Of a stretch of 34,314 nucleotides of DNA, positions 20,120-26,455 are shown in pieces. Each line of letters opens with the position of its first letter. Position 1 is the stretch's first letter. The notes beneath the pieces were generated by a model. The model did not search any database. It was not told the origin of the DNA and was given only the letters and a program-made list of their open reading frames with translations. Made by a program: the position numbers and the translations under genes. This DNA is from Parachlamydiaceae bacterium (GTDB taxonomy: Bacteria > Chlamydiota > Chlamydiia > Chlamydiales > Parachlamydiaceae), in contig JACDGH010000002.1 of the NCBI GenBank assembly GCA_013815395.1, positions 1 through 34,314 on the forward strand, given 5' to 3'.

Positions 20120-20146
20120 GGTACTCACAACACAAGTGAGTTATAC

Positions 20147-20231
20147 GGAAGAGTGGCAGAGTGGCCGAATGCGCCTGTCTTGAAAACAGAAGTCCTGAAA
20201 GGGACCGTGGGTTCGAATCCTACCTCTTCCG
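20147..20231 (+). tRNA. tRNA-Ser (anticodon UGA)
   Basis: The acceptor stem is GGAAGAG/CTCTTCC and the anticodon loop is CTTGAAA. It has a long variable arm GTCCTGAAAGGGACC and a T-arm GTGGG-TTCGAAT-CCTAC. It is nearly collinear with E. coli tRNA-Ser(UGA). No CCA is encoded. Confidence 0.93.
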
Positions 20232-20446
20232 TCCTTTTTATCCTTCTTAAGATTATTCTAGTATTATCAAAATTTTTCCTTATAAATTATTTCGATAGAA
20301 TTCAAACACTCCCTTTAAATAACGATATTTAGTTCATATATTTATTTAAAAAATTTGTAAAAAAATTACAATTATTATAGCATTTGACAAATCCTATAGG
20401 GATAGGATTTTATTTAAATAAAGAATACGATTAACAGGGAAATTAT

Positions 20447-23540: not shown

Positions 23541-23832
23541 GTTAGTAGAGCCGCACTTCCGAGACTGACAGGAAATAGCTGAACCAGGTCATTTGCCTTT
23601 GGAGTGCGCCAGCTCCTTCTGCGCCCTTTAATTCACGAGATCACTCTAAGCTCCCTAGCATATAATAAAGGAATCAGAGACTAAAAAACTTATTGCAAAA
23701 CCATTCTATTTTGCTACAATTATCTCTTGAATTAAAGGGCGCAGCAGGAGCTGATGCACTCCAAAGGCTTCGCCAAAGGCAAATTATCTATTCTGCTATT
23801 CTTTGTCAGCCTCGGAAGTGCGGCTCTACTAG
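23541..23832. repeat. 292-nt GC-rich inverted-repeat element, copy B (MITE/REP-like)
   Basis: The left arm 23541..23634 (GTTAGTAGAGCCGCACTTCCGAGACTGACAGGAAATAGC...CTGCGCCCTTTAATTC) is the imperfect reverse complement of the right arm 23729..23832 (GAATTAAAGGGCGCAG...TGTCAGCCTCGGAAGTGCGGCTCTACTAG). The centre is 94 nt and AT-rich. No ORF is present. Confidence 0.8.
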
Positions 23833-24151: not shown

Positions 24152-24356
24152 AAATAATCTCCAAAAAATATGAAATTTGAATTTTTTACTAGATGATGTT
24201 CTGGGTATAGTTAGCTTATATAATACATATCCTATTGTCGCGATTTTAATTTTAAATTTTCATCTCATAAAAGGAAAACTGAAAAAGTTGTTGAATGAGA
24301 AAAAAAAATGTGCAACAATCATCATTTAACACTACTTTCTAACCACGAATTTTTTT

Positions 24357-24428
24357 ATGTTTAAAATGTCCCTCATTAATATTCAGAACAATATTGGGCG
24401 AGCCATAATGAGGTGCGGGCTTATGTGA
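24357..24428 (+). CDS. candidate leader peptide 1 (MFKMSLINIQNNIGRAIMRCGLM)
   Basis: A 23-codon ORF with four Ile and two Leu codons. Its 3' end (AGG TGC GGG) mimics the 3' half of the terminator that follows. It has no clear Shine-Dalgarno. It is homologous in layout to leader 2. Confidence 0.35.
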   Translation: MFKMSLINIQNNIGRAIMRCGLM

Positions 24429-24457
24429 TCGGTTTGCCGAACATAGCTTTAATCAGA

Positions 24458-24492
24458 GACCGCACTCTCCTAAGAGGTGTGGTCTTTTTTTT
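24458..24492 (+). terminator. intrinsic terminator / attenuator 1 upstream of brnQ
   Basis: GACCGCACTCT-cctaag-AGGTGTGGTC is followed by T8. Confidence 0.75.
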
Positions 24493-24562
24493 GCCCACAT
24501 ATGTAAGAAAAGTTAAAAAGAAAAAAAATTATAAAAATAAAGATTTAGAGAGAAAATTTAAA

Positions 24563-24646
24563 ATGTTCAATATGTGCATTGAGTCCAATAATAATCGAAT
24601 TATTGTGGTGATCCACGCTAAAACGAGGTGCGGACCTGTGCTTTAG
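24563..24646 (+). CDS. candidate leader peptide 2 (MFNMCIESNNNRIIVVIHAKTRCGPVL)
   Basis: A 27-codon ORF with a GAGAGA Shine-Dalgarno-like element about 10 nt upstream. It has five consecutive branched-chain codons, ATT ATT GTG GTG ATC (24599..24613). Its 3' end contains GAGGTGCGG (24625..24633), which mimics the terminator 3' half. Confidence 0.55.
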   Translation: MFNMCIESNNNRIIVVIHAKTRCGPVL

Positions 24647-24677
24647 GCTATTAGCCCATAGTTAGGTTGAAACTAAA

Positions 24678-24710
24678 ACCGCACTCTCGAAAGGGGTGCG
24701 GTTTTTTTTT
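24678..24710 (+). terminator. intrinsic terminator / attenuator 2 upstream of brnQ
   Basis: AACCGCACTCTC-gaaa-GGGGTGCGGTT is followed by T9. It lies 53 nt before the brnQ ATG. Confidence 0.8.
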
Positions 24711-24762: not shown

Positions 24763-25905
24763 ATGAAAAACAAATGGCTTGTAATCACTACTGGATTTGC
24801 TTTATTTTCAATGTTTTTTGGATCGGGTAATCTCGTTTTCCCAATTACTGTGGGCCAAGAAAGCCAAGGACATTACCTGCTAGCTGCAATTGGCATTTTA
24901 TTTACAGGAGTAGTTGTTCCCTTTCTGGGGGTATTGGGAATGATGCTTTATAAAGGTGACATCTATAGTTTTTTTAATTGCTTTGGCAAAAAAGGAACAT
25001 TCTTGTTCATGTTCTTGGCCCTGTCACTAATGGGACCATTTGGAGTGCTTGCCCGTTGTTTAACAGTTGCGCACGGTGCATTACTTCTTTTATTGCCAAA
25101 TGCTTCATTACCCCTCTCAAGTATTCTTATGTGCCTTGTGGTCTATTTCATGGCAGTAAATAAAAATAACATCGTGTCCACCTTAGGAACAGTATTGACA
25201 CCATTTTTACTTTTAGCCATCACTGTTATTGCGTTTTCAGGACTAAATCAAGGAACTTTTCCTGAAATGTCAGCATCCAGTGGTTGGAATGCCCTGAAAA
25301 ACGGTTTTTTTCAAGGTTACCAAACAATGGATCTTTTAGCTGCATTCTTCTTTTCACAATTCGTAATTAAACACCTTTACAGCAAATTAGTGGGTAATAA
25401 TGGAGAAGCTTACTTACTTAAGAATTTTTATAAATCATCACTAATTGGTGGGGGCATTTTATCTTGTGTGTACTTTGCTTTAGTCTTACTCGGCTGGATC
25501 TATTCACCTTTATTGCTGAATACTCCACCACAAGAGATGTTGGGAGTGATTGCTATTGAATCTTTAGGCCCAATAGCAGCACCATGTGTATGCTTGGCAG
25601 TGTTGTTTGCATGCCTAACAACCTCAATTGTATTAACTTCCTTATTTGCTGATTTTTTACGTTCTGAAGTCTTGAAAGAGAAAATCGGAAACAAGCAAGC
25701 TTTGTTAATCACTTTAGGAATTGGTTTTGTTGTCTCGACATTTGATTTTGCGGGAATTGCCAGATTTTTAGGACCCGTTCTAGAAGCGACCTATCCCGCT
25801 TTAATTACTTTAACCATAGTCAATATTGCCTATAAATTTTTAGGCATGAAATCTTCGCATTGGCCTTTTACCTTGACATTGGCGGCTAAACTATGCTGGA
25901 TCTAA
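24763..25905 (+). CDS. brnQ: branched-chain amino acid transport system II carrier
   Basis: The N-terminus GFALFSMFFGSGNLVFPITVGQ is the BrnQ/LIVCS signature. The protein is polytopic and hydrophobic throughout. At 380 aa it is shorter than the typical ~440 aa. Confidence 0.9.
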   Translation: MKNKWLVITTGFALFSMFFGSGNLVFPITVGQESQGHYLLAAIGILFTGVVVPFLGVLGMMLYKGDIYSFFNCFGKKGTFLFMFLALSLMGPFGVLARCLTVAHGALLLLLPNASLPLSSILMCLVVYFMAVNKNNIVSTLGTVLTPFLLLAITVIAFSGLNQGTFPEMSASSGWNALKNGFFQGYQTMDLLAAFFFSQFVIKHLYSKLVGNNGEAYLLKNFYKSSLIGGGILSCVYFALVLLGWIYSPLLLNTPPQEMLGVIAIESLGPIAAPCVCLAVLFACLTTSIVLTSLFADFLRSEVLKEKIGNKQALLITLGIGFVVSTFDFAGIARFLGPVLEATYPALITLTIVNIAYKFLGMKSSHWPFTLTLAAKLCWI

Positions 25906-25973: not shown

Positions 25974-26455
25974 TCATATCAACAATTTACATTTCCGCAT
26001 TTGATGAATCGCATCAACCATTGTTGATGAATTAGCAGCATTTCTAAAATTAATTGCATCTTGATTTTCATAGAGCTTATATTTTTCTAAATCGACGTCG
26101 TGGGAAACCTCACTTTGCCTACCGGAACGCTGAAAAGAAGCAGCCAATTCAACTTTCTGAAAAAAAATTCTTTTGTCATGGATTGGCATTGTAGGCAAAC
26201 CCAATTTGCCAACACTTCCAGTTCTGGTAGATCAAGAATTTCATATTGTTTCTTCGAGAATATTAAAACATCTAAAATATCCTTAGATAAAACATCTTGC
26301 CGCAAACCATGGGCCAATCCATGGTTAAATCTATGGACAACATATGGGATGCCGCTAATCACTCGCGAAACTTTTGAATTTTGGTCTTTATAATGAGATA
26401 GGAAGTATGATTTGTGGAAAGCAGGGCGCGACTCGCCCTTCTTTCCACAATTCAA
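25974..26455 (-). pseudogene. frameshifted, start-less gene remnant (His-rich motif HRFNHGLAHGLRQ ... SHDVD)
   Basis: Two overlapping ORFs (26087..26455 and 25974..26204) join across an A8/T8 tract at about 26160..26167. There is no ATG start in the upstream part, and its first codons lie inside a strong hairpin. Confidence 0.5.
26412..26450. other. GC-rich 17-bp hairpin of unknown role
   Basis: TTGTGGAAAGCAGGGCG-cgact-CGCCCTTCTTTCCACAA has one mismatch. No U-tract is present on either strand. Confidence 0.5.

Follow-up and report, generated by a model that had tools for sequence, protein, structure and literature searches.

Tandem leader units upstream of brnQ in Parachlamydiales-like chlamydiae: a conserved family of putative isoleucine- and valine-sensing attenuators

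What is the role of the two homologous leader units that precede brnQ, the gene for a branched-chain amino acid carrier, in the 34,314-nucleotide (nt) stretch of a Parachlamydiaceae genome analysed here (the window)? A preliminary description had read this pair (unit 1, 24357-24492; unit 2, 24563-24710) as tandem leader-peptide attenuators, and all the elements on which it built were found in place: the units align with 78% column identity, each comprises a short open reading frame (ORF) and a strong intrinsic terminator (Table 1), and in both the 3' end of the ORF carries GAGGTGCGG, which is able to pair with the 5' half of the terminator. The run of Ile and Val codons in unit 2 was confirmed by reading the sequence, as was the weaker appearance of unit 1, which is without a Shine-Dalgarno (SD) sequence and has only scattered Ile codons, its run being gone; the gap between ORF and terminator, given before as 30-45 nt, is shorter, with 26-28 nt from stop codon to terminator stem. 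With at most one mismatch, GAGGTGCGG occurs eight times in the window versus 1.6 expected, four of these matches lying within these 350 nt, and both units fold more stably than their shuffled versions (z = -3.9 for unit 1, -3.1 for unit 2). The family to which the pair belongs, and unit 2 itself, very probably act as ribosome-mediated transcription attenuators that sense charged tRNA-Ile and, in unit 2, also tRNA-Val. All sequence-level predictions of this reading are borne out, with conservation over 40 homologous units from Chlamydiota contigs, and in the orthologous leaders of relatives neither the ORFs nor the mimicry of the terminator by the ORF end has been lost.

The extent of the family was traced from a BrnQ alignment scan which, with one genome per species, yielded 80 Chlamydiota loci (L numbers below denote these and further loci). 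In more than 20 of them the element lies directly upstream of brnQ, with a layout of short ORF, GAGGTGCGGACCTATGTGA, a CCTAT/ATAGG hairpin and ACCGCAC…GTGCGG followed by T7-T10. R1, a covariance model based on the relatives (threshold E < 1e-6; 91 sources searched), finds 40 units in Chlamydiota contigs, each of which directly precedes brnQ or ilvB and points towards that gene. Exactly two of the 40 lie in the window: unit 1 is matched over 24380-24492 with 80.3 bits, the lowest score among close relatives, and unit 2 over 24595-24710 with 96.3 bits. Five extra R1 matches with E < 1e-14 come from loci searched later, namely two in L114, one in L115 and two in L116, the last being the window's own locus in another assembly. 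Units were found only in relatives with a BrnQ that shares about 53% identity or more with that of the window; more distant brnQ genes are without the element in the R1 search, which found no unit beyond the Parachlamydiales-like brnQ clade. A pattern scan of metagenomes returned 12 true elements, located upstream of brnQ and in one case upstream of ilvB-N-C-A-D-E, together with 12 chance matches in GC-rich coding DNA. The leaders of brnQ genes without the motif (L012, L015-L020, L024-L041, L047-L048) hold no convincing analogous attenuator; that of L047, with MKLQCVFPTFLIIISIGS and a T8 tract, was considered and set aside as it has no clear switch. Searches of Rfam at the gathering threshold and at E <= 10 gave only sub-threshold, terminator-driven matches and no T-box or riboswitch, and our literature searches turned up no account of such a leader before brnQ or ilv genes in chlamydiae. 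The family is thus a conserved, previously undescribed ilv/brnQ leader of Parachlamydiales-like chlamydiae, belonging to a class of regulator that is already known.

How would such a unit work? In the sequence of events that we propose, transcription would start upstream of 24357 and the leader ORF would be translated while RNA polymerase advances. With Ile and Val plentiful, the ribosome would reach the stop codon, which lies 7-10 nt past segment 2 (GAGGUGCGG) and is part of the central hairpin's 5' arm, where it would cover segment 2 and allow segment 3 (ACCGCACUCUC) to pair with segment 4 (GRGGUGYGGU); the terminator hairpin with its U8 or U9 tract would then end transcription at about 24492 or 24710. 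With Ile-tRNA or Val-tRNA scarce, the ribosome would instead stall among the Ile/Val codons of the run, 14-20 nt short of segment 2, covering segment 1 and freeing segment 2; pairing of segments 2 and 3, capped by the central hairpin, would block the terminator, and polymerase would continue into brnQ. With the units in series, expression would be the product of the two readthrough probabilities.

An ATG-initiated ORF in a single frame, xAGG-UGC-GGx, is found in 37 of the 40 units; the stretch from the ATG to the Arg codon ranges from 11 to 25 codons and in nearly every case measures 18-22. In the first units of L095 and L011 the frame is shifted by 1 nt relative to the RNA motif, and one unit is cut by a contig end. 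As the frame-shifted ORFs still stop just past segment 2, it is translation and its end point that are conserved, not the C-terminal peptide. Examples of the peptides across the family are MFRNQQIDIISMQMIIMIHTIWRCGPM, MFKSHIEPTIQRIIIIIHMKTRCGPMS and MLNKCADVRSIIIRIIVVIHVKSRCGPMP; those orthologous to the peptide of unit 1 include MFSSTHVDISIQIIIGHTTLRCGSM in L106 and MFSKTHVDISIQIIIRHTPLRCGPM in L114. Ile makes up 24.5% of leader residues and 32% of the last 12 codons, versus 8.7% of the window's proteins; Leu is depleted (5% versus 9.6%) and Val mildly enriched. Ile codons number 164 of 585 in frame versus 16 and 23 off frame, and stop codons 4 in frame versus 40 and 42. Ile-Ile occurs in 29 of the 37 units and a run of at least three Ile/Val codons in 22, the run being made of Val codons in the GC-richer L011. 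Judged by these codons, the element is specific for Ile, with Val in addition, and depleted in Leu. The spacing is regular as well: the last codon of the run lies at a median of 17 nt before segment 2 (it begins 14 nt before it in unit 2 of the window), and the stop codon follows segment 2 by 7 or 10 nt in nearly all units. A candidate ATG-TGA 'start-stop' behind an SD-like GGAGGTG was dropped as unconserved, its variants reading ATC TGA, ATT TGA, ATG TAA and GTG CTT TAG.

The preliminary description had further suggested folding the two alternative structures, and both the antiterminator and the terminator pairing prove conserved and mutually exclusive. At full length, the minimum free energy (MFE) structure holds the terminator in 28 of 29 units. 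When the transcript is truncated after segment 3, the number of units that fold into the antiterminator as their MFE structure is 21 of 37 if no ribosome is placed, 30 of 37 if the last codon of the Ile/Val run is masked as by a ribosome, and 1 of 37 if the mask sits on the stop codon. In such truncated transcripts segment 2 of unit 1 pairs with 24460-24469, and unit 2 forms nine pairs between segments 2 and 3 with or without the stalled-ribosome mask. In the 40-unit alignment, with slid partners and 500 shuffles as controls, 89.4% of cells are paired in the termination conformation versus 41-47% with slid partners, 15 pairs are changed on both sides, and none of the 500 shuffles reached the observed value. 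The terminator helix is 99.4% paired and covaries across the family; covariation is clear in its lower stem and in the central hairpin, for example from ACCTAT/ATAGGT to ATCTAT/ATAGAT. The antiterminator helix of segments 2 and 3 is paired in 96.9% of cells over the 40 units, mostly through invariance and G-C to G-U changes, and has only a one-nucleotide bulge. Segment 2 is nearly invariant because it must pair with segments 1 and 3 and also code. Segment 1, (A)UCCACRYY, spans Ile-His-Thr/Val codons and is able to pair with GGUGCGGA; this helix 1 is paired in 85% of cells, mostly with one-sided, wobble-compatible changes, and is missing from the MFE structure of many truncated transcripts. In unit 2 of the window, segment 1 may pair with GGUGCGGA of segment 2, as an anti-antiterminator, or with the upstream GUGG Val codons. 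Segment 1 is thus plausible, and with it the layout would be the classical one of four segments.

The description had also seen ilv-type logic applied to an importer, and in close relatives the same tandem leader does head the ilvBNCADE operon. In L106, a tandem of a first-type (u1) and a second-type (u2) unit stands behind a clear promoter and is followed by ilvB-ilvN-ilvC-ilvA-ilvD-ilvE (304-7323, - strand), and brnQ is interrupted after about 25 codons. In L088 (1-9043), ilvB…ilvE-ridA-brnQ form one cluster, with 93% nucleotide identity to L106 over the ilv genes and a BrnQ 88% identical to that of the window. L114 (1149-1499) has promoter, u1, u2, a remnant of ilvB of 116 amino acids (aa) fused to the 3' end of ridA, and then brnQ; it is a deletion intermediate, with decay of the operon in progress. 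In relatives with an ilv cluster or a remnant of it, BrnQ is 87-88% identical to the window's. The leader of the window is orthologous to those of L114 and L106 (76-77% identity over about 310-350 nt), and in comparison with them only some 35 non-homologous bases separate it from brnQ. The ilv genes may have been lost in the lineage of the window or inserted in the other sub-lineage, which is equally possible because the leader stands immediately in front of brnQ in distant relatives, too.

Two units are present in ten genomes: the window, L008, L011, L021, L042, L045, L046, L095, L106 and L114. Within a genome they are 48-65% alike, versus 64-95% to a unit of another genome, in 9/9 tandem genomes (L114 being outside this comparison), and u2-type units cluster together. 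Thus, the duplication is old and both copies were kept, as two paralogous types: u1 units read …IQIIIxHT…, u2 units …RIIVVIHxK…, the Val codons of the latter also forming a GUGG/CCAC hairpin. Unit 2 of the window is a canonical u2, 88% identical to unit 2 of L106 over the sensor part (alignment columns 1-118, terminator excluded); unit 1 is the most divergent u1, and its best match elsewhere is only 66% identical. A single unit in L093 (3667-3784, - strand) combines a body of the u2 type (MFNKCIESIGIRIIVVIHVKS…) with a preceding 5' context of the u1 type (GGTTTGAATCTTAGCT-ATGTTTAAC); here unequal recombination may have collapsed a tandem pair.

Several points weigh against the attenuation mechanism, or against the strength with which the alignment speaks for it. 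The units are phylogenetically related and binomial P values overstate their independence, and the alignment, being derived from the covariance model, leans towards the structure of that model. The GUGCGG/CCGCAC core is almost invariant, the antiterminator and the 1:2 helix resting on conservation and on G-C to G-U changes; changes that are truly compensatory are very rare, the antiterminator helix having one such cell. Most leader ORFs, that of unit 1 in the window included, are without an SD sequence. As the antiterminator is the MFE structure of so many truncated transcripts without a ribosome, the untranslated default may be readthrough, unlike in the trp paradigm. Unit 1 of the window, with no Ile run and its low identity to the nearest relative, may sense nothing. 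Finally, the leader transcript, its 3' ends and readthrough are predicted from the sequence, from which we also infer the transcription start and promoter, the stalling, the response, and the direction and size of regulation.

Could the same architecture serve another purpose? The switch might be operated by a ligand, a tRNA or a protein, as in a riboswitch, a T-box or an attenuator with an RNA-binding protein, with the short ORF incidental. That GAGGTGCGGACCTATG is conserved well beyond the needs of a generic stem, that many ORFs have no SD sequence and that the antiterminator often forms without any ribosome would all suit such a riboregulator. However, an untranslated RNA leaves the conserved frame and length of the ORF, the position of its stop and the in-frame enrichment of Ile unexplained, and the invariance of segment 2 is accounted for by its three-way constraint. 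Free variation and covariation in the loops and inner stem of the central hairpin leave no aptamer-like conserved core, and the Rfam searches described above returned no family at threshold and no T-box or riboswitch even at the relaxed one; we therefore regard this possibility as very unlikely. No more credible is a role of the peptide itself, in which the conserved C-terminal Arg-x-Gly-Pro would act as a SecM-like translation-arrest motif and hold the ribosome over the antiterminator strand. R-A-G-P is the arrest core of SecM, and R-C-G-P, with the same spacing, occurs in most units, often after Trp. However, every nucleotide of AGG UGC GGA CCU is also under RNA-pairing constraint, each covariation of the hairpin (ATCTAT/ATAGAT, GCTTAT/ATAGC) puts Ser or Leu in the place of Pro, and the frame-shifted units end in EVRA or EVRT; the motif was accordingly rejected as an essential feature. 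It is similarly improbable that the units are independent small genes, encoding small RNAs or small proteins from their own promoters and terminators, with brnQ served by a promoter of its own. Each unit is indeed a compact module of ORF and terminator of about 140 nt, promoters could lie hidden in the A/T-rich spacers, and small RNAs derived from attenuators are known, such as rnTrpL (PMC7968998). However, the brnQ start lies only 52 nt past terminator 2, with no convincing promoter seen in between; the units were found nowhere but right before brnQ or ilvB, each time on the same strand; the peptide is poorly conserved outside the Ile run and its C-terminus changes with a frame shift; and a duplicated antiterminator strand would have no role in a plain small-RNA terminator.

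A more serious question is whether both units work in the window. Unit 2 is the canonical sensor, and unit 1, whose Ile run and canonical segment 1, CCACACC, are lost, is probably a weaker or partly decayed one: compared with the family, Ile-Ile-Ile has become Asn-Asn-Ile, and His-Thr (segment 1) Arg-Ala. It is conceivable, although we lean the other way, that only unit 2 functions here and that unit 1 is a decaying duplicate, acting as a constitutive partial terminator or simply read through. These replacements, the missing SD sequence, the lowest model score among close relatives and the distance to the best match would fit such decay. On the other side, unit 1 has preserved its terminator, its antiterminator strand, its ORF with the position of the stop and, with compensating changes, its central hairpin; four Ile codons are left, one of which (24393) lies 17 nt before segment 2; a replacement for segment 1 pairing is predicted (24371-78 with 24406-13); and both unit types are kept across all nine tandem genomes compared. 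At the opposite end stands a more ambitious scheme, to which we assign a low probability: the pair would be a long-maintained two-input gate, with u1 responding to Ile only and u2 to Ile and Val, whose serial terminators would yield a multiplicative, ultrasensitive response, and which would have served ilvBNCADE-brnQ at first and, once the biosynthetic genes had gone, remained in use for the importer. In this scheme the abundant RNAs of about 140 nt left by premature termination could in addition act in trans, like rnTrpL.

How does the proposed attenuator compare with known systems? It resembles the ilvGMEDA (ilvL) and ilvBN (ivbL) leaders of E. coli and Salmonella in having a short ORF rich in branched-chain amino acid codons, an antiterminator strand in or just after this ORF that copies the 3' half of the terminator, and an intrinsic terminator before ilv genes, the chlamydial leader preceding ilvB in L106 and L114. 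Both ilvL and the chlamydial leader also have ATT ATT ATC ... TGC GG and the GUGCGG/CCGCAC core. Unlike ilvL and ivbL, the chlamydial leader is specific for Ile (and Val) and depleted in Leu, is arranged in tandem, and in most genomes serves the importer brnQ alone. Homology to E. coli ilvL, considered for the shared ATTATTATC…TGCGG, was rejected, as BLASTN of the leader against 5,426 E. coli genomes gave no match and the unrelated thrL outscores ilvL in the R1 search (thrL 32.3 bits, ilvL 19.3, leuL 16, hisL 14, ivbL about 8), the matches to the thr, ilvGMEDA, leu and his attenuators all lying in the correct register. The likeness to ilvL is therefore one of class or convergent, not one of family; in its proposed working the chlamydial leader is like the enterobacterial leu and thr leaders as well. 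An R1 match at 204-309 of L118 is the E. coli thrL attenuator itself, which shares the arrangement GGTGCGGG … CCCGCACC … GTGCGGG, and attenuators seem to have arrived at the GUGCGG/CCGCAC core repeatedly. Of the amino-acid leaders in Rfam, Thr_leader (RF00506), Leu_leader (RF00512) and Phe_leader (RF01859) belong to the same class and are matched by cmscan in the right register, albeit with 16-16.5 bits, far under their gathering scores of 50-55, and they differ in regulatory amino acid, lineage and sequence; no gathering-level match was obtained with cmscan for any of Leu_leader, Thr_leader, His_leader, Trp_leader and Phe_leader.

Outside Proteobacteria, S. aureus and Listeria have ribosome-mediated ilv-leu attenuators (PMC5794164, PMC5864092) that likewise combine a leader peptide rich in branched-chain amino acids with a terminator, and such attenuators have been predicted in Corynebacterium and Lactococcus too (reviewed in PMC6123439). 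These are single units that control biosynthesis, are Leu-rich in S. aureus and are coupled to CodY, whereas the chlamydial units are Ile/Val-specific, come in tandem, belong to Chlamydiota and would control import. For two ORF-dependent attenuators in series before an operon containing a transporter gene, the Salmonella mgtCBR leader (PMC3641672) is a precedent. However, its ORFs mgtM and mgtP are unrelated and sense ATP and proline/osmolarity, in contrast to the chlamydial units, which are homologous duplicates of overlapping predicted specificity, each with its own intrinsic terminator. Tandem T-boxes and riboswitches also place homologous termination switches in series, for a multiplicative or sharper response, but there the sensor is the RNA, binding uncharged tRNA or a ligand, and here we propose it to be the position of the translating ribosome; the units of about 115-140 nt gave no match to the T-box model RF00230 even at E <= 10. 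The attenuation of trpRBA in Chlamydia trachomatis (PMC7755916) concerns a different operon, follows a YtgR- and Trp-dependent logic and belongs to the Chlamydiaceae lineage. It was the sole attenuation-type control that we found discussed for Chlamydiae in the literature searched.

To our knowledge, few regulators are known in Chlamydiae, and almost none of the predicted chlamydial attenuators has been assigned a function (PMC2965389). The family described here would tie the supply of Ile and Val to the import of branched-chain amino acids and, in some lineages, to their biosynthesis, and its well-conserved signature would make it a dependable regulatory RNA for the phylum. It implies that these intracellular bacteria use the coupling of translation to transcription for regulation. 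It may also be read as a record of genome reduction, with L114 as the intermediate, in which the leader persists while the ilv genes behind it are deleted. In practice, the amount of leader RNA relative to brnQ RNA could serve to tell when chlamydial symbionts are starved of amino acids within their hosts. As the mechanism is a textbook one, the family extends known biology rather than changing it; what should interest those working on chlamydiae or regulatory RNA is the phylum, the tandem paralogous architecture, the control of an importer and the link to the decay of the ilv operon.

Table 1. Coordinates of the leader units, the candidate promoter and brnQ in the window.
Feature	Position	Strand	Details
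Unit 1 leader ORF, MFKMSLINIQNNIGRAIMRCGLM then stop	24357-24428	+	u1 type, divergent; ATG start
Unit 1 possible segment 1, CCTCATTA	24371-24378	+	Full-length MFE: pairs with TAATGAGG at 24406-24413
Unit 1 segment 2 (antiterminator strand), GAGGTGCGG	24410-24418	+	Codons Arg-Cys-Gly
Unit 1 central hairpin	24419-24448	+	ORF stop TGA 24426-24428 inside; caps antiterminator helix
Unit 1 intrinsic terminator	24455-24492	+	Stem AGAGACCGCACTCTC / GAGGTGTGGTCT and T8; -18.5 kcal/mol
Unit 1 terminator parts	24459-24469; 24474-24483; 24485-24492	+	Segment 3 ACCGCACTCTC; loop CTAA; segment 4 GAGGTGTGGT; T8
Unit 2 leader ORF, MFNMCIESNNNRIIVVIHAKTRCGPVL then stop	24563-24646	+	u2 type; weak GAGAG purine tract 11-16 nt upstream of ATG
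Unit 2 regulatory codons ATT ATT GTG GTG ATC	24599-24613	+	Ile-Ile-Val-Val-Ile
Unit 2 segment 1, UCCACGCU	24612-24619	+	Family helix 1 and MFE alternatives
Unit 2 segment 2 (antiterminator strand), GAGGTGCGG	24625-24633	+	
Unit 2 central hairpin	24634-24668	+	ORF stop TAG 24644-24646 inside
Unit 2 intrinsic terminator	24675-24710	+	AAAACCGCACTCTC, loop GAAA, GGGGTGCGGTTTT; 13 pairs; T9 24702-24710; -18.1 kcal/mol
Candidate leader promoter TTGAAT, 17 nt spacer, TGC-AACAAT	24291-24319	+	Weak, putative; 8/12 to consensus
brnQ (LIVCS branched-chain amino acid:cation carrier)	24763-25905	+	380 aa; Pfam PF05525, E 9e-52

A promoter scan of the window showed no site clearly serving the leader, and the candidate in Table 1 was not listed there; a perfect TATAAT at 24219-24224 is an alternative promoter element. 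In L106 and L114, a clear promoter, TTGCTT-17-TAAAAT, lies upstream of unit 1 in a stretch that is not homologous to the window. The long non-coding stretch that leads from a metallophosphatase gene to the leader contains a nested imperfect palindrome of about 290 bp (23543-23831), with outer arms of 41 nt (88% complementary) and inner arms of 54 nt (87% complementary), which looks like a miniature inverted-repeat transposable element (MITE) or a long hairpin element. As it ends in CCGCACTTC/GAAGTGCGG, it gives rise to extra matches to the attenuator 9-mer in the window. A different long palindrome (…CAGGATCGCAAGCGGCAGGATAAAAAAGGATAAG… and its complement) is found just upstream of the leader promoter region in L083, at about 2060-2240.

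The BrnQ homologues are 73-88% identical and about 380 aa long, and where a taxonomic label is given, as it is for a few of them, it is mostly a chlamydial one (Protochlamydia, Parachlamydiaceae, Chlamydiae). The brnQ locus of the window with both leader units is also present on the 20.7 kb contig JAITZQ010827806.1 of NCBI assembly GCA_020064125.1 (L116). Judging by the very high number of this contig, the assembly may be a large one, of a host or a metagenome, in which the chlamydia of the window is contained. A tRNA-Ser gene (anticodon TGA) at 20146-20234 is the sole RNA gene that Rfam and ARAGORN recognised in the window. Just downstream of brnQ, on the - strand, an ORF of 122 aa (26087-26455) weakly matches the SidE phosphodiesterase domain (PF12252, E 2e-6), an effector-type domain of Legionella; it may be a fragment, and is called as 71 aa in L116.

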